Source of the DNA: Escherichia coli
GTDB taxonomy: Bacteria > Pseudomonadota > Gammaproteobacteria > Enterobacterales > Enterobacteriaceae
Strand: one strand, 5' to 3'
NCBI RefSeq assembly: GCF_001677475.2
Contig: NZ_CP015229.1
DNA length: 64,000 nt
Position numbers and translations under genes: made by a program
Notes under the pieces: model-generated
Seen by the model: only the letters and a program-made list of their open reading frames with translations
Databases searched by the model: none
What the model was told of the DNA's origin: nothing
Part shown: positions 1-59,350 of the stretch, piece after piece
Layout of the letters: each line of letters starts with the position of its first letter
Position numbering within the stretch: position 1 is the stretch's first letter

Positions 1-87
1 TGGTGCGAGGGGGGGGACTTGAACCCCCACGTCCGTAAGGACACTAACACCTGAAGCTAGCGCGTCTACCAATTCCGCCACCTTCGC
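1..87 (-). tRNA. leuQ: tRNA-Leu (anticodon CAG), 87 nt, ends CCA
   Basis: Reverse complement of 1..87 reads GCGAAGGTGGCGGAATTGGTAGACGCGCTAGCTTCAGGTGTTAGTGTCCTTACGGACGTGGGGGTTCAAGTCCCCCCCCTCGCACCA, the E. coli Leu tRNA; adjacency to rsmC suggests leuQ. Window starts at the tRNA 3' end. Confidence 0.85.
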
Positions 88-199: not shown

Positions 200-387
<188 letters not shown>

Positions 388-10952: not shown

Positions 10953-11037
10953 TTCTGCCATTCCGGGACGTTACACTGTTCAGGCACCTTATAAAACGGG
11001 TGCCGGGCGTGGAAACCCGGAATTCACCAAAGCGCAC

Positions 11038-11060
11038 AACCGCGCTCTTGCGGTTTTTTT
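11038..11060 (+). terminator. Rho-independent terminator (tR1-like) containing a boxA-like CGCTCTT
   Basis: AACCGC-GCTCTT-GCGGTT stem followed by TTTTTTTG. Confidence 0.5.
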
Positions 11061-11229
11061 GTGTCATGAGCAGCATTACGCCCAAATTATGGTGGGGCGT
11101 GCAGGGCCAACTTCGGTTGGGCCGGGTTCTTTGGTGACCGGTATTTCCACCCCTGTACGTCTCACCACCAATAAGGTCGTGGAAAGCCTTGGTGGTGAGT
11201 TATTAAAAATCACCAAAGAGGCTGCCATC

Positions 11230-19294: not shown

Positions 19295-19594
19295 AAAAAT
19301 TCCTTAATACTGATAACTTGGCGCACTATACACACGTTCCTGAAGAAAGCTATAGTTTTTTGATGGGGTTGAAGATGGCTGGATGTCTAAAATAAACATT
19401 GCTTCATATGTTCAACTATGCGTTAATGATTGCGTCGGTTTGAAGAACAGACGATATACGAAGTAGTTTACTAAAGCAGTTCTCATTTCAGGTGTTATTC
19501 ACTTATTCCTTCTTTGAGTCTCTCCAATTAAGTACGAAGTCGTTTCTGTTATACAAGCCATTTATGCCGAAAGGCTCAAGTTAAGGAATGTAGA

Positions 19595-19810
19595 ATGTCA
19601 AATAAAATGACTGGTTTAGTAAAATGGTTTAACGCTGATAAAGGTTTTGGCTTTATTTCTCCTGTTGATGGTAGTAAAGATGTGTTTGTGCATTTTTCTG
19701 CGATTCAGAATGATAATTTTCGAACCTTATTTGAAGGTCAAAAGGTTACCTTCTCTGTAGAGAGTGGTGCTAAAGGTCCTGCAGCAGCAAATGTCATAAT
19801 TACTGATTAA
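19595..19810 (+). CDS. cspB: Cold-shock protein CspB
   Basis: 71-aa [44 protein letters not shown]...; near-identical to recalled CspB; divergent from the cspF-like gene as in Qin. Confidence 0.9.
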
Positions 19811-20092
19811 AATTAATAGTTTGTCTGTATACGATAACGAAGAAGGCTGATGCCTGAGTGGAGATACAGACAGAGTGGTGAATATTGGATCTCTTTAATA
19901 AATAGTAAGGAGATCCAATACATGAAACAATGGCCAGCATATTTGGCAATAACTTAATCAGGAAAAGTATGCTAACCATTGTGGTGAAGTGCAGGTTTGC
20001 TGCATGAATAGTTTTACAGCAGAAGCTAACTGCTAGCATAGCAAAACAAAGTGCGTAAGTGGATGACTCCCACAAAAAGCACCACAATATTA

Positions 20093-22683: not shown

Positions 22684-23045
22684 ATTAATATTAAATCGGA
22701 TTATTTTTAGCGCTGAATGTGAAATTTAAATAAAAAGGACTCTTCCATGAGTCAAAATCCTTGAAATCTTAAGGGTAAGATAAAAGGTCATTAGACAGAA
22801 TGACACGTTTTATTAATAAATAAAGCTATTGTTTCATTCGTGTGTTTTTCTTTACAAAAGTAATCCTTGCTATGGTTGGTTAATCATGCGTTAATGGTGT
22901 TCTGGTTTGTTACAAAATTATCTGAAGCAGTCATTGTTATAATTTTATTATTTGTACCTCTTGAGATTTCCTTGTTGGTTTTTCTCTCTGATATTTTTTT
23001 CGGACCATTCTGCCCAAGGGCTAACTTCTTCAAAAGGTAATAATG

Positions 23046-23258
23046 ATGTCTAACAAAATGACTGGTTTAGTGAAATGGTTTAACCCTGAAAAAGGTTTTG
23101 GTTTCATCACGCCGAAAGATGGTAGCAAAGATGTGTTTGTCCATTTCTCAGCTATTCAGAGCAACGATTTCAAAACGTTAACTGAGAATCAGGAAGTCGA
23201 ATTTGGTATTGAGAACGGACCTAAAGGCCCCGCGGCTGTTCATGTTGTGGCACTTTGA
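23046..23258 (+). CDS. cspI: Cold-shock protein CspI
   Basis: [70 protein letters not shown] matches recalled CspI. Confidence 0.9.
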
Positions 23259-23461
23259 GGTAGAAAATATTACAAACCATATTCACTTTAGATGCCCGTG
23301 TTGCCATGGTTCTCAGTATAGAACATCATCTTTTGATGTTTCTGACAGGAATCCTTTCGGGGCAAAATGTATCTTTTGTAAATCAATGATGATTACATTT
23401 GATAATATTTCACAATACTTAAATGTTAGCCGTCTGTCGTTAGATTTAAGAAAGTGAAAAT

Positions 23462-51353: not shown

Positions 51354-51929
51354 ATGGATTTCAGAATGAGTGAACAACCACGGACCATAACAATTTATAA
51401 TCTGCTGGCCGGAACTAATGAATTTATTGGTGAAGGTGATGCATATATTCCGCCTCATACAGGTCTGCCAGCAAACAGTACCGATATTGCACCGCCAGAT
51501 ATTCCGGCTGGCTTTGTGGCTGTTTTCAACAGTGATGAGGCATCGTGGCATCTCGTTGAAGACCATCGGGGTAAAACCGTCTATGACGTGGCTTCCGGCG
51601 ACGCGTTATTTATTTCTGAACTTGGCCCATTACCGGAAAATGTCACTTGGTTATCCCCGGAAGGGGAGTTTCAGAAGTGGAACGGCACAGCCTGGGTGAA
51701 GGATACGGAAGCAGAAAAACTGTTCCGGATCCGGGAGGCGGAAGAAACAAAAAACAACCTGATGCAGGTAGCCAGTGAGCATATTGCGCCGCTTCAGGAT
51801 GCTGCAGATCTGGAAATTGCAACGGAGGAAGAAATCTCGTTGCTGGAAGCATGGAAAAAGTATCGGGTATTGCTGAACCGTGTTGATACGTCAACTGCAC
51901 AGGATATTGAATGGCCAGCACTGCCGTAG
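51354..51929 (+). CDS. tfa: Tail fibre assembly protein Tfa
   Basis: [41 protein letters not shown]... matches recalled lambda Tfa; SD GAGGTG upstream. Confidence 0.9.
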
Positions 51930-52026: not shown

Positions 52027-52617
52027 TTATATGTCAGGTGTCTGAAGTTTTGCTTTGGCTCTTAAAATGGTTTGCCGCGAGGTTTTGAATTCCCGGGCAA
52101 TGGCACTTATACTTACACCTGACTTAATTCGTTCGAATACCACCTGTTTCTGTTCTTCATTTAACACAGGTGGTCGACCAAAACGTTTCCCTGCGCCCCG
52201 GGCTCTTACTATCCCGGAATGAGTGCGTTCAAGTAAAAGGTCTCGTTCAAATTCAGCGACTGCTGAAATTACTTGCATCATCATTTTTCCTGTTGGACTG
52301 GTCAGGTCAATGCCCCCCAATGCTAAGCAATGCACTCTGATACCTGTTTCGGTCAGTTGTTCCACTGTTTTCCTGATATCCATTGCATTACAACCAAGGC
52401 GATCCAGTTTTGTCACAATCAATTGATCACCACATTTCAGGCGAGCAAGCAACCGGTTAAAACCAGGACGCTCACTGGTTGCTGCTGAGCCGCTAATGTG
52501 TTCTTCGATTATTTGCTGAGGTTTGATTTTAAAACCTGCACTTTCGATTTCCCGGCGTTGATTTTCGGGGGTCTGATCCAGCGTTGATATCCGACAGTAA
52601 GCAAAAATTCGAGACAT
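52027..52617 (-). CDS. pin: Serine recombinase / DNA invertase (Pin/Hin/Gin family)
   Basis: 196-aa [18 protein letters not shown]... with catalytic Ser motif and C-terminal HTH; adjacent to tfa as in e14/Rac/Qin. Confidence 0.88.
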
Positions 52618-52996
52618 AGTGAGACTCTATACGAAATTGGTGTACATATCATAATGCATATCCAAAAATTATTTCGCTTATTATTGTACATATTTGTATG
52701 TATACGTTCGAAAATAAACGAATTCGGATGCAGTCCCGTAATTTTGGTGTAACCAAAAATCGATTTTTTGAAAAATGGCTTTAACTCGGTTTGTTTTTCG
52801 AACTCCGGGCGGACTCGAGGAAGACGAATAATAGTGTTGTATGTTATTTTAACCAGATTTTAAGTTGTTTGGTCGTGGAAAAGTGGAGCAAAATGTTGTT
52901 AAAGTGGAAAAATGGTAAAAAAAGTAGGTTGTTGCGGAATAACGTAGTTGTTGATATTTTTTTAATGCATTGAAAAATTATTTTTCAGGGGGGGTA

Positions 52997-53230
52997 TTAC
53001 ACTTTACCATTTAAATTTTGGTTGTCTTTAAGAACTGATATCGCTGTTTGTAATAATTCTTTGTTATCCAGCCATGACTTTTTCTTTATGTTTCCTTCAA
53101 TGTAATCAAGCAATGTTCTGGTATTGATAGGTCTTCCCTGTTTTGCTACTTCCACGACAGCATCTCCCAGGATAATTCTGACTTCAGGAAGCTGCGCAGG
53201 GAACCACTTTAGGGTGTCTTTTGATTTCAT
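52997..53230 (-). CDS. YdfK/YnaE-like cold-shock-induced prophage protein
   Basis: MKSKDTLKWFPAQLPEVRIILGDAVVEVAKQGRPINTRTLLDYIEGNIKK...; matches recalled YdfK; start trimmed to internal Met. Confidence 0.75.
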   Translation of the reverse strand: MKSKDTLKWFPAQLPEVRIILGDAVVEVAKQGRPINTRTLLDYIEGNIKKKSWLDNKELLQTAISVLKDNQNLNGKV

Positions 53231-53298
53231 GAAGATATTCCTTAAAATATTATTGGTTTTCATTGCAATATTGTATGTCTGATTCAGGATATGTTGAC

Positions 53299-53412
53299 TT
53301 ATACATCGGTTTTGTCCGGGTTATTGGATATGCCAATCCCTAATTTTATTAGAGCATGACCAAAAATGCTGAATATGATAAGTAGTGAAGTGATTATCAG
53401 TATGCTGTTCAT
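53299..53412 (-). CDS. Hypothetical 37-aa hydrophobic membrane peptide (type I toxin-like)
   Basis: Hand-translated [37 protein letters not shown]; SD GAGG 4 nt upstream; TTGTCA/TATATA promoter-like elements upstream. Confidence 0.3.
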
Positions 53413-53838
53413 ATAGCCTCGAATTAGTATGGTGTTATATATAATATAGTTGACAATTTTTATCCTGGGTGTTCTTAAAGTTCGTAGATGAACCCTGTAG
53501 TTTCAGGTATACAGGAATGCTTACAGATAGCGGCAAAAGTCAGGAGGTTAATGGCGCAAACTGAAGGGGTAGCTGCGAACTAACTTAGGTAGAGACTCTA
53601 CACGGATTCGGTTTAAAAGTATACATAGATAACAATTTTTATCTGAAGAAGAAAAATATTAAGGTGATATGGTCATATATACTTTAATGCGGAAGAATGA
53701 ATGTGATGAGAGTGCTGTATCTGAATGGTTGAAAAACCGCAGACACGTCGTATGCAAGAACGTGCTGCGGTTGGCTGGTGAACTTCCGATAGTGCGAGTA
53801 TTGAATGATTTCCAGCCGTTACCGATTTTACGTGTTAA

Positions 53839-54087
53839 TTAGTGAACAAACCACTCGTCAGCAGACTCCCAGGTATCTTTCAGAGTTTCCTGAACAAAAG
53901 TTTTAGCTGAATCTTTATCGGCGGTGCGCGTAACAGAAAGGCCATCGTTGCTGGTGGCTTTTACGATCACCTCTACATCGTCATAACGCTTACTGATGCG
54001 TCGAGTTAATTCTTCCTTTAACGCATCCACAGCACCGTTTGGCATTTTAGTCATTTTCTCTTTGGCTATGCAGATCTCAATACGCAT
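53839..54087 (-). CDS. dinI: DinI-family damage-inducible protein
   Basis: 82-aa [13 protein letters not shown]...[11 protein letters not shown] matching the DinI family; two LexA boxes upstream. Confidence 0.85.
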
Positions 54088-54102
54088 AAAAATCCCTCTA
54101 CA

Positions 54103-54146
54103 CTGTGTTTGTATACAGTGTTATTTTTAACTGTATGAATAAACAG
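54103..54146. promoter_or_regulatory. Two tandem LexA boxes (CTGT-N8-ACAG) in the dinI-like promoter
   Basis: CACTGTGTTTGTATACAGTG at 54101..54120 and AACTGTATGAATAAACAGTG at 54129..54148. Confidence 0.75.
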
Positions 54147-54171
54147 TGTCAATAGAACAAAGATTGCTGCA

Positions 54172-54286
54172 TGTACAAATGTTCTTTGGCTACAAATACA
54201 CCTACTGATCATGTTCTGCTATGCTCTGATACCTCCAAAATGTACAATCAGCGGCATGAATTTTTCTTTGTACATATGATTGTACA
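54172..54286. promoter_or_regulatory. TGTACA-containing repeats near attR (ATGTACAAA, TTGTACATA x2); candidate arm-type sites overlapping the phage-borne prfC promoter region
   Basis: Same 9-mers as at 3362..3418 near attL. Confidence 0.4.
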
Positions 54287-54306
54287 TAATCAAAGAGACA
54301 ACAATT

Positions 54307-55893
54307 ATGACAAGCCTTTTGGCCGCAGAGGTAGCGAAAAGAAGAACCTTTGCAATTATTTCTCACCCGGACGCCGGTAAAACAACCATCACCGAGAAGG
54401 TGCTGCTGTTCGGACAGGCCATTCAGACCGCCGGTACAGTAAAAGGCCGTGGCTCTAACCAGCACGCTAAGTCGGACTGGATGGAGATGGAAAAGCAGCG
54501 TGGGATCTCCATTACCACGTCTGTGATGCAGTTTCCGTATCACGACTGCCTGGTTAACCTGCTCGACACCCCGGGGCACGAAGACTTCTCGGAAGATACC
54601 TATCGTACTCTGACGGCGGTGGACTGCTGCCTGATGGTTATCGACGCTGCAAAAGGTGTTGAAGATCGTACCCGCAAGCTGATGGAAGTTACCCGTCTGC
54701 GCGACACGCCGATCCTCACCTTTATGAACAAACTTGACCGTGATATCCGCGACCCGATGGAGCTGCTCGATGAAGTTGAGAACGAGCTGAAAATCGGCTG
54801 TGCACCGATCACCTGGCCGATTGGCTGCGGCAAGCTGTTTAAAGGCGTTTACCACCTTTATAAAGATGAAACCTATCTTTATCAGAGCGGTAAAGGCCAC
54901 ACCATTCAGGAAGTCCGCATTGTTAAAGGGCTGAATAACCCGGATCTCGATGCTGCGGTTGGTGAAGATCTGGCGCAGCAGCTGCGTGACGAACTGGAAC
55001 TGGTGAAAGGCGCGTCTAACGAGTTCGACAAAGAGCTGTTCCTTGCGGGCGAAATCACTCCGGTATTCTTCGGTACTGCGCTGGGTAACTTCGGCGTTGA
55101 TCATATGCTGGATGGCCTGGTGGAGTGGGCCCCTGCGCCGATGCCGCGTCAGACTGATACCCGTACCGTAGAGGCGAGCGAAGACAAATTTACCGGCTTC
55201 GTATTTAAAATTCAGGCCAACATGGACCCGAAACACCGCGACCGCGTGGCGTTTATGCGTGTGGTGTCCGGTAAATATGAAAAAGGCATGAAGCTGCGCC
55301 AGGTGCGTACTGCGAAAGATGTGGTGATCTCCGACGCGCTGACCTTTATGGCGGGTGACCGTTCGCACGTTGAAGAAGCGTATCCTGGCGATATCCTCGG
55401 CCTGCACAACCACGGCACCATTCAGATCGGCGACACCTTTACCCAGGGTGAGATGATGAAGTTCACCGGTATTCCGAACTTCGCGCCAGAACTGTTCCGT
55501 CGTATCCGCCTGAAAGATCCGCTGAAGCAAAAACAGCTGCTTAAAGGGCTGGTACAGCTTTCCGAAGAGGGCGCGGTGCAGGTGTTCCGTCCGATCTCCA
55601 ACAACGATCTGATCGTTGGTGCGGTTGGTGTGCTGCAGTTTGATGTGGTGGTAGCGCGTCTGAAGAGCGAATACAACGTTGAAGCAGTGTATGAGTCAGT
55701 CAACGTTGCCACTGCCCGCTGGGTAGAATGTGCGGACGCGAAGAAATTCGAAGAGTTCAAGCGTAAGAACGAAAGCCAACTGGCGCTTGATGGCGGCGAT
55801 AACCTCGCTTACATCGCTACCAGCATGGTCAATCTGCGCCTGGCGCAGGAACGTTATCCGGACGTTCAGTTCCACCAGACCCGCGAGCATTAA
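54307..55893 (+). CDS. prfC: Peptide chain release factor 3 (RF3), reconstituted with a phage-derived 5' end
   Basis: [27 protein letters not shown]... with GTPase motifs; first ~16 codons come from the prophage side of attR. Confidence 0.92.
54355..54368. other. attR core (ATTATTTCTCACCC) within prfC codons 17-21
   Basis: Exact copy of the 14-bp sequence at 3184..3197. Confidence 0.75.

Positions 55894-58374: not shown

Positions 58375-59350
<976 letters not shown>

Follow-up and report, generated by a model that had tools for sequence, protein, structure and literature searches.

The window analysed here, a 64,000-nt stretch of Escherichia coli DNA, carries a 37-codon open reading frame (ORF) in AT-rich DNA between a ydfK-like and a dinI-like gene. 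The initial annotation headlined the product as a candidate type I toxin and noted a resemblance to toxins of the small membrane type or to small proteins of prophages. The question raised by this locus is whether the peptide is such a toxin, another kind of prophage small protein, or no functional protein at all. The features on which the answer depends are listed in Table 1.

Table 1. Position of ynaM and of neighbouring genes and RNA features in the window
Feature	Position	Strand	Remarks
ydfK	52997..53230	minus	77 aa, 'cold shock protein YdfK' (RefSeq); PF27475 (YnaE family); 68 nt downstream of ynaM
ynaM/ynfT-family gene	53299..53412	minus	37 codons + TAA; predicted single-helix small membrane protein
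Shine–Dalgarno GAGG	53420..53417	minus	4 nt before ynaM ATG
Leader (5′ UTR) of ynaM–ydfK unit	53413..53611	minus	~199 nt, given the predicted start
Equivalents of leader-internal 3′ ends	53546..53558	minus	Measured in K-12; transferred by ungapped alignment and ATG distance
Promoter-like site TTCAGA-18 nt-TATACT	53618..53647	minus	9/12 consensus match
Intrinsic terminator	53732..53772	minus	14-pair hairpin 53772..53735 + U5; dG −20 kcal/mol, z = −3.9
DinI-like gene	53839..54087	minus	Outside the conserved ynaM–ydfK module; other sequence there in Rac and other loci

Identity and conservation of the ORF

On the minus strand, the ORF begins with an ATG at 53412..53410 and ends with a TAA at 53301..53299. 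Its translation, its Kyte–Doolittle profile (19-residue maximum of 2.54 at residues 4–22) and an AlphaFold2 model built on a 9-sequence alignment, with one helix at residues 2–30 and a low-confidence tail at residues 31–37, all agree with the hydrophobic helix followed by a polar tail that the initial annotation had described. The tail (SNNPDKTD) has an acidic or neutral character and contains no basic or aromatic signature. The claimed Shine–Dalgarno (SD) sequence was also confirmed, and it is kept as tGAGGa at Salmonella-type loci. In RNA folding, the SD was predicted to be approximately 47% unpaired, and the AUG of ynaM to be mostly paired within a local hairpin (probability of being unpaired, 0.02). 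RefSeq and family matches support the position between ydfK-like and dinI-like genes, and the AT-rich setting is reflected in a GC content of 34% in the ORF and 37.6% in 53264–53838, against 50.3% in the whole window.

The peptide matched Pfam PF23676 (YnaM) over residues 1–37 of 37 with 93.3 bits against a cut-off of 27, and NCBIfam NF041477 (YnaM_YnfT_fam), also at full length, with 59.9 bits against a cut-off of 35. It is identical at 36 of 37 residues to both YnaM of the Rac prophage and YnfT of the Qin prophage of strain K-12, with S18G as the sole difference. The K-12 genes are located at 1434406–1434293 (ynaM, Rac) and 1632890–1633003 (the second copy in Qin, now ynfT) (VanOrsdel et al., 2018; PMC6001520), and the K-12 form of the protein is YNAM_ECOLI in UniProt. 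Megablast found the surrounding 951 bp at 100% identity in E. coli chromosomes, and at a 100% identical locus RefSeq annotates ydfK, WP_001372053.1 ('YnaM/YnfT family protein'), the DinI-like gene, prfC and osmY. In the public protein collection, at least 1000 contigs carry the exact peptide under the name 'MULTISPECIES: YnaM/YnfT family protein [Enterobacteriaceae]', and PHROGs places it in phrog_35882, with the function category unknown. A full-length family score above the cut-off, 37 residues comprising a helix and the SNNPDKTD tail, and a ydfK-adjacent location at a prophage end were all found for this ORF. Judged from its sequence, the ORF is the already known and catalogued ynaM/ynfT gene of E. 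coli lambdoid prophages; the gene has entries in Pfam, NCBIfam, UniProt and RefSeq, and the existence of its protein was shown in 2018. The broader wording of the initial annotation, a prophage small protein, is thus upheld in the form of a conserved and intact member of the YnaM/YnfT family.

Of the complete E. coli genomes, 5426 in number, 2806 carry the interval 53200–53480, nearly always at 95% identity or higher and in one to three copies per genome, and every full-length row sampled from these genome matches is annotated as YnaM/YnfT. The locus also occurs in the isolated temperate phages 2H10, Tritos, mEp460, PhiR63_1, HannyBb, Turner and Kati, and Salmonella phage 118970_sal3 carries a 76%-identical version. 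When 1.84 billion cluster representatives were searched exhaustively with HMMER, only three clusters (50% identity) were returned, and the range of YnaM is narrow, comprising Escherichia and Salmonella.

Homologous loci were collected using YdfK as bait, giving 28 loci on viral contigs and two in genomes, to which three annotated records (L001–L003) were added. The scan of genome contigs used near-exact YdfK peptide patterns and yielded only these two loci, both from E. coli, the Salmonella-type loci coming from viral contigs. The 37-codon ORF was intact in all 27 loci with an upstream flank, among which nine nucleotide alleles were distinguished. The initial annotation had named conservation across prophages as a check and disruption at homologous loci as grounds for refutation; the former was observed and the latter was not. 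The dN/dS ratio was 0.06–0.18 across the nine alleles and approximately 0.1 when the E. coli type is compared with the Salmonella type; the two differ at 14 synonymous and nine non-synonymous sites (dS approximately 1.0, dN approximately 0.11). In codons 25–37, the two types show seven synonymous differences (pS 0.81) and one non-synonymous difference, and residues G25–K34 are invariant among the nine variants. The substitution pattern thus identifies the ORF as a gene under purifying selection, and YnaM/YnfT as a strongly constrained small protein carried by approximately half of the complete E. coli genomes. A damaged allele is seen occasionally, as in P0003, a 41-aa variant in which the tail is replaced.

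The accessory end of a lambdoid prophage houses the module, and genes for a tail fibre, tail-fibre assembly and an invertase are found just upstream. In prophage-free genomes, including K-12 and BL21, the match to the window begins at approximately 54327, some 20 nt inside prfC, placing the prophage junction near 54327, approximately 0.9 kb from ynaM. Like the K-12 copies, the window copy lies directly upstream of ydfK/ynaE and downstream of tail-fibre and invertase genes, and it has the leader, promoter-like site and upstream terminator in common with them. It differs from them in its host prophage and attachment site, the prophage in the window ending in the 5′ end of prfC and Rac ending beside uspF, and in having a dinI-like gene upstream.

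Organization and transcription of the ynaM–ydfK unit

The conserved block has the order terminator, leader, ynaM, 68-nt spacer and ydfK. Alignment of E. coli loci with differing upstream genes showed that homology starts exactly at the terminator hairpin. In Qin of K-12, Term-seq 3′ ends at 1632571 and 1632574 were recorded directly after the U-run (Adams et al., 2021; PMC7815308, supplementary file 1), indicating that intrinsic termination takes place at this hairpin, which thereby insulates the module. The same terminator also ends the transcript of the dinI-like gene. Rfam assigned no family at threshold to 52600–54300; CssrB scored 24 bits, below its gathering score of 76, a weak match for most of which the terminator hairpin accounts, and a plant microRNA match in the E-value scan was considered spurious. 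A 57-aa ORF on the plus strand (53669..53842), which has no family match and overlaps the terminator, was likewise treated as spurious.

Promoter-like elements, which the initial annotation had reported for the ORF, occur in the region at the frequency given by shuffled sequences (seven consensus matches found versus 6.9 expected), and the one promoter that has external support is situated approximately 200 nt upstream rather than beside the ORF. This site, TTCAGA-18 nt-TATACT, is the sole minus-strand promoter-like site between the terminator and the ORF, and both of its hexamers are invariant in the E. coli loci covering it, with one variable position in the spacer. It sits downstream of the terminator and upstream of the leader 3′ ends described below, an interval within which the start site must fall. 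Shimada et al. (2017; PMC5493296) reported genomic SELEX peaks of the RpoS, RpoH and RpoE holoenzymes at 1432638/1432738 in the ynaE–uspF spacer and at 1630740/1630638 in the ydfI–ydfK spacer. The supplement of ROSE has no entry for these genes. If the SELEX positions are U00096.2 coordinates (offset from U00096.3 by approximately 1976), the peaks fall approximately 170–300 bp upstream of both ORFs and so coincide with this site. TTCAGA-18-TATACT is thus the probable promoter of the ynaM–ydfK unit. A TTGTCA ... TATAAC pair just upstream of the ORF was rejected because its spacing is unfit for sigma-70; a proximal promoter is nevertheless a possibility, hinted at by the conservation of a 50–75-nt stretch in Salmonella-type loci.

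The leader is approximately 90% conserved among E. coli loci. Salmonella-type loci match the E. coli type over only ~50–75 nt upstream of ynaM, which makes the long leader a feature particular to the E. coli lineage. Between 53621 and 53479, the leader strand is rich in C and poor in G; its C/G ratio of approximately 2 is near the 95th percentile of the window, a bias that is compatible with Rho loading and non-diagnostic of it. For the leader and ORF together (322 nt), the folding energy is −55.7 kcal/mol, and shuffled sequences average −55.1 (z = −0.14). RNAalifold detected no covariation in the leader, for which the input sequences were too similar to be informative.

The measurements of RNA ends and Rho dependence come from the K-12 paralogues, whose leader is approximately 90% identical to that of the window. 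In Rac, 3′ ends on the minus strand were mapped at 1434540, with 44,933 reads in LB at OD 0.4 and 51,526 in M63, and at 1434552, with 76,298 reads in LB at OD 2.0. The uspF terminator has counts of similar size, and 1632744 (plus strand) in Qin is the same leader 3′ end (Adams et al., 2021; PMC7815308). The listed 3′-end sequences span −50 to +10, which was checked on the uspF terminator. The leader 3′ ends thus lie 134 and 146 nt before the ATG, equivalent to 53546 and 53558 in the window, and RNAs of approximately 54–66 nt are expected if transcription starts near 53611. In that study, the ends were classed as 'orphan' because ynaM was missing from its annotation (Adams et al., 2021; PMC7815308). 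A Rho termination region was placed at 1434347 (minus strand), 59 nt inside ynaM, at the coarse resolution of windows of 800 nt; read counts upstream and downstream were 93 and 2 without bicyclomycin and 188 and 95 with it (Rho score 23.5, p = 9e-12; PMC7815308, supplementary file 2). Tying these published ends and the Rho region to the small-protein gene ynaM is the one mildly new angle of the present analysis, and it offers a handle on the silencing of the prophage cold-shock genes ydfK and ynaE at 37 °C.

For ydfK, the start at 53230 is preferred, since its ATG and SD are conserved in Salmonella-type loci; the ATG at 53263 shows no such conservation, for which reason an 88-aa version beginning there was rejected. 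The AlphaFold2 model of YdfK (pLDDT 74.7, moderate confidence) has four helices, and its closest PDB fold is YmgB/AriR (2OXL_A), with a TM-score of 0.69 when query-normalised and 0.84 when target-normalised, an rmsd of 2.1 Å over 61 columns, 15% identity, a Foldseek probability of 1.00 and E = 0.12. A weak match to the YcgZ profile (E = 0.009) agrees with an AriR-like fold; among PDB sequences, neither a sequence nor a profile search turned up a match to YdfK. AriR and YcgZ are small regulators that feed into envelope signalling, and the ycgZ–ymgABC genes are reported as cold-induced. As regards the partner gene ydfK only, the unit resembles the ycgZ–ymgA–ariR(ymgB)–ymgC cluster in that the YdfK model superposes on AriR and both sets are reported to be cold-induced, and it differs in that, to our knowledge, no small membrane protein is encoded ahead of ariR. 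The modelled fold is a lead to a possible target of the unit, namely small regulators that feed into envelope signalling, and provides no evidence on the function of YnaM. In the contexts of distant YdfK/YnaE genes, a divergent YnfU-family gene was present in two of the three examined.

Function of YnaM and alternative explanations

In K-12, chromosomally SPA-tagged YnaM was detected by immunoblotting in LB cultures (VanOrsdel et al., 2018; PMC6001520), and YnaM had been positive in an earlier ribosome-profiling screen with tetracycline. The level of the SPA-tagged protein exceeds that of most newly found small proteins, though the tag and the linked marker could inflate it. At ynaM, Weaver et al. 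detected no ribosome density from initiation complexes; we suspect that the two identical copies in K-12 left the reads unmappable. Our literature search found no paper assigning a function to YnaM or YnfT, ynfT being listed among the uncharacterised Qin genes, and no over-expression data for ynaM or ynfT.

Considering these results, the ORF is likely to be a working ynaM/ynfT gene that encodes a single-pass membrane protein, and we propose the following scenario. ynaM is the first cistron of a compact two-gene unit, ynaM–ydfK, which lambdoid prophages of both Escherichia and Salmonella carry in their accessory or 'b-region' end. The alignment and the K-12 3′ ends show that the unit begins with its own intrinsic terminator and is thereby insulated from upstream genes, and transcription would start from the promoter approximately 200 nt upstream of the ORF, as suggested by consensus, position and polymerase binding in vitro. 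By homology with the K-12 paralogues, most transcripts at 37 °C would stop early, at the leader 3′ ends and then in the Rho region centred on the ORF, so that little transcription would reach ydfK unless Rho is inhibited. YnaM itself may be non-toxic, a small membrane protein with the role of binding a larger protein of the envelope or membrane and modulating it. YdfK, which has a predicted fold similar to that of the small regulator YmgB/AriR, may act jointly with YnaM. The invariance of the tail, despite the high divergence of its synonymous sites, points to a specific contact rather than to generic membrane damage.

The modulator step is drawn by analogy. AcrZ, MgrB, MgtS and KdpF are characterised small inner-membrane modulators of E. 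coli. Like them, YnaM has fewer than 50 residues and a single transmembrane helix and accumulates detectably, presumably without toxicity, and its conserved short extramembrane segment would suggest a specific partner, as in those proteins. YnaM differs from them in having no sequence relationship to any of the four and in being prophage-borne.

A role mainly in cis, with ynaM as a translated leader ORF whose ribosomes shield the transcript from Rho and thereby set the read-through into ydfK, is compatible with the modulator reading but is rather unlikely to be the principal function. It would fit the location of ynaM 68 nt upstream of ydfK on the same strand in 27 of 27 prophage-type loci, the C-rich and G-poor leader and the centring of the K-12 Rho region inside ynaM, with downstream reads rising from 2 to 95 in the presence of bicyclomycin (coarse resolution, paralogue). 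It would also fit the naming of ydfK and ynaE as cold-shock genes, which change together with cspB, cspI and ynfN. However, the strong constraint on the amino-acid sequence, including the tail, and the stability and fair abundance of the tagged protein exceed what a spacer ORF needs. Furthermore, no ynaM-like or hydrophobic ORF was found upstream of distant YdfK/YnaE genes (PF27475, 55–64% identity) in Enterobacter, a second E. coli type and Limnobaculum, suggesting that ydfK-type genes do not require ynaM. Rho silencing of AT-rich prophage DNA is widespread, and the Rho signal at ynaM therefore need not be regulatory.

Somewhat less probable again is a more elaborate arrangement in which the leader and ynaM together gate the expression of a prophage cold-shock unit in a manner not described before. 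From a constitutive promoter, an abundant leader RNA of approximately 55–65 nt, possibly a prophage small RNA, would be made, and Rho would stop most transcripts in or before ynaM until cold or another signal, perhaps acting through ynaM translation, allows read-through to the AriR-like YdfK, with YnaM and YdfK then acting on envelope signalling.

We regard it as very unlikely that YnaM is a type I toxin, that is, a toxic inner-membrane peptide that a small RNA, antisense or nearby, ordinarily keeps from being made. With Hok/Gef, Ldr, TisB, Ibs, ShoB, ZorO and DinQ, the peptide shares a small hydrophobic helix, an origin in DNA that is often mobile or prophage-derived, here AT-rich prophage DNA, and a long 5′ leader; tisB, shoB, zorO and dinQ are type I toxins whose mRNAs have long leaders, and that of ynaM is approximately 200 nt. 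The predicted pairing of the start codon in a local hairpin would also fit, as would one antisense-oriented promoter-like match on the plus strand at 53221..53248. This match is, however, within chance expectation for the region (7 versus 6.9), and its −10 element lacks the final T in Salmonella-type loci. A plus-strand TTGACA at 53450 was considered as an antisense or divergent promoter and rejected for its poor −10 element (TCTTAA).

The other observations argue against a toxin. A Pfam scan at E ≤ 10 returned only YnaM and two unrelated sub-threshold matches, with no type I toxin family, PADLOC gave no match, and Rfam found no RNA family at threshold in 52600–54300. The Term-seq tables for three growth conditions contain no 3′ ends on the opposite strand at either K-12 copy (PMC7815308), and no complementary stretch above chance was found elsewhere in the window; these negatives on an antitoxin RNA come from indirect data. 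The mRNA is not unusually structured (z = −0.14), with the SD about half open, and YnaM-SPA is readily detected in unstressed LB growth. The acidic or neutral tail is, moreover, more constrained than the helix. YnaM thus differs from the known type I toxins in showing no homology to them, no detected antitoxin RNA and no strongly structured mRNA, in being made in unstressed cells and in having a tail that is neither basic nor aromatic. The toxin headline of the initial annotation is accordingly left unsupported, there being no toxin-family match, Rfam RNA, opposite-strand 3′ ends or structured mRNA, and the tagged protein accumulates.

That the ORF arose by chance or is a decaying remnant in non-coding prophage DNA is refuted by its conservation and by the detection of its protein and can be set aside with near certainty: short ORFs are indeed plentiful (63 of at least 20 aa in 4 kb here), AT-rich DNA favours Ile, Leu and Phe codons and damaged alleles such as P0003 occur, but an ATG ORF of 30 aa or more with a segment as hydrophobic arose in only 0.4% of 2000 dinucleotide-preserving shuffles of 53264–53838, dN/dS is near 0.1, the synonymous sites having diverged, curated family models match and the K-12 protein has been detected. 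In the same 2000 shuffles, a hydrophobic ORF together with an SD-like 4-mer arose in none.

Implied leader RNA and upstream boundary of the ynaM-ydfK module

In the Term-seq tables for strain K-12, the 3' ends falling in the leader of ynaM and its Qin paralogue ynfT are abundant and labelled 'orphan' (Adams et al., 2021; PMC7815308). These ends imply that, under each of the three growth conditions, a short RNA of ~54-66 nt is made from the promoter of the module. The leader RNA matched no known RNA family in the Rfam scan, and the leader alignment contained no covariation by which its structure could be judged.

In the alignment of the loci, the conserved module begins exactly at a strong hairpin followed by U5, irrespective of the gene upstream, and 3' ends of the K-12 Qin copy lie directly after the U-run of this hairpin (PMC7815308). 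A sub-threshold Rfam match to CssrB in this region is attributable to the boundary hairpin. A 57-aa plus-strand ORF running across the hairpin, which shares 4 nt with the 3' end of the dinI-like gene and had no match in Pfam or NCBIfam, is probably spurious.

Features in the window, with the corresponding K-12 leader ends
Feature	Position	Strand	Basis or remark
tRNA	4..87	-	Rfam gathering-level; left edge of window
naRNA4 (CssrE) repeats, n = 3	227..309 and 59150..59329	+ (59150..59329)	Rfam gathering-level
isrK and C4 antisense RNA, adjoining	10984..11172	+	Rfam gathering-level
cspA-thermoregulator	19434..19873	+	Rfam match, 159 bits
cspA-thermoregulator	22889..23304	+	Rfam match, 111 bits
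IS009	51697..51895	+	Rfam gathering-level; within tail-fibre assembly gene
88-aa ydfK ORF	52997..53263	-	mechanical call
Direct repeat, proximal copy	53453..53464	-	GATAAAAATTGT
Implied leader RNA	53546..53611	-	homology to K-12 3' ends
Direct repeat, distal copy	53632..53643	-	GATAAAAATTGT
CssrB match	53632..53769		Rfam, sub-threshold
57-aa ORF	53669..53842	+	
Hairpin + U5	53732..53772	-	upstream boundary of conserved module
Prophage/prfC junction	~54307..54327		alignment limit of genomes without this prophage
K-12 leader 3' ends, Rac	1434540/1434552	-	Term-seq (PMC7815308)
K-12 leader 3' ends, Qin	1632744	+	Term-seq (PMC7815308)

Direct repeat upstream of ynaM

The 12-nt sequence GATAAAAATTGT occurs twice: one copy precedes the ynaM ATG by ~40 nt, and the other falls in the spacer that separates the hexamers of the distal promoter-like site (TTCAGA-18-TATACT). 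Apart from the proximal copy and the sequence around it, nothing upstream of ynaM is shared with Salmonella-type loci. The pair may represent a promoter duplication or a site for a regulator, but a repeat of this kind is expected by chance (E = 1).

YdfK start, distant relatives and YnaM variants

The 88-aa ydfK call is over-extended, the conserved start being the ATG at 53230 (77 aa), preceded by AAGGAA. The YdfK model is similar to YmgB/AriR (2OXL). On Enterobacter, E. coli and Limnobaculum contigs (L034-L038), YdfK/YnaE-family genes of more distant relationship (55-64% identity) occur without ynaM. Their neighbour in E. coli and Limnobaculum is a small-protein gene of the YnfU family (PF23499), transcribed divergently; in Enterobacter and E. 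coli, a GH94 glycoamylase-like gene of 2860 aa lies alongside. Separately, a 41-aa YnaM variant from a public protein collection (P0003) has its conserved tail replaced beyond residue 27, indicating that damaged alleles occur occasionally.

Prophage context and the prfC junction

The two cspA-thermoregulator matches indicate that the same prophage has csp-type cold-shock genes besides ydfK. Since genomes without this prophage (K-12, BL21) align only from ~54327, a point ~20 nt into prfC, the prophage appears to provide prfC with its promoter region and initial codons. The dinI-like/prfC junction is common to 651 of 5426 genomes.
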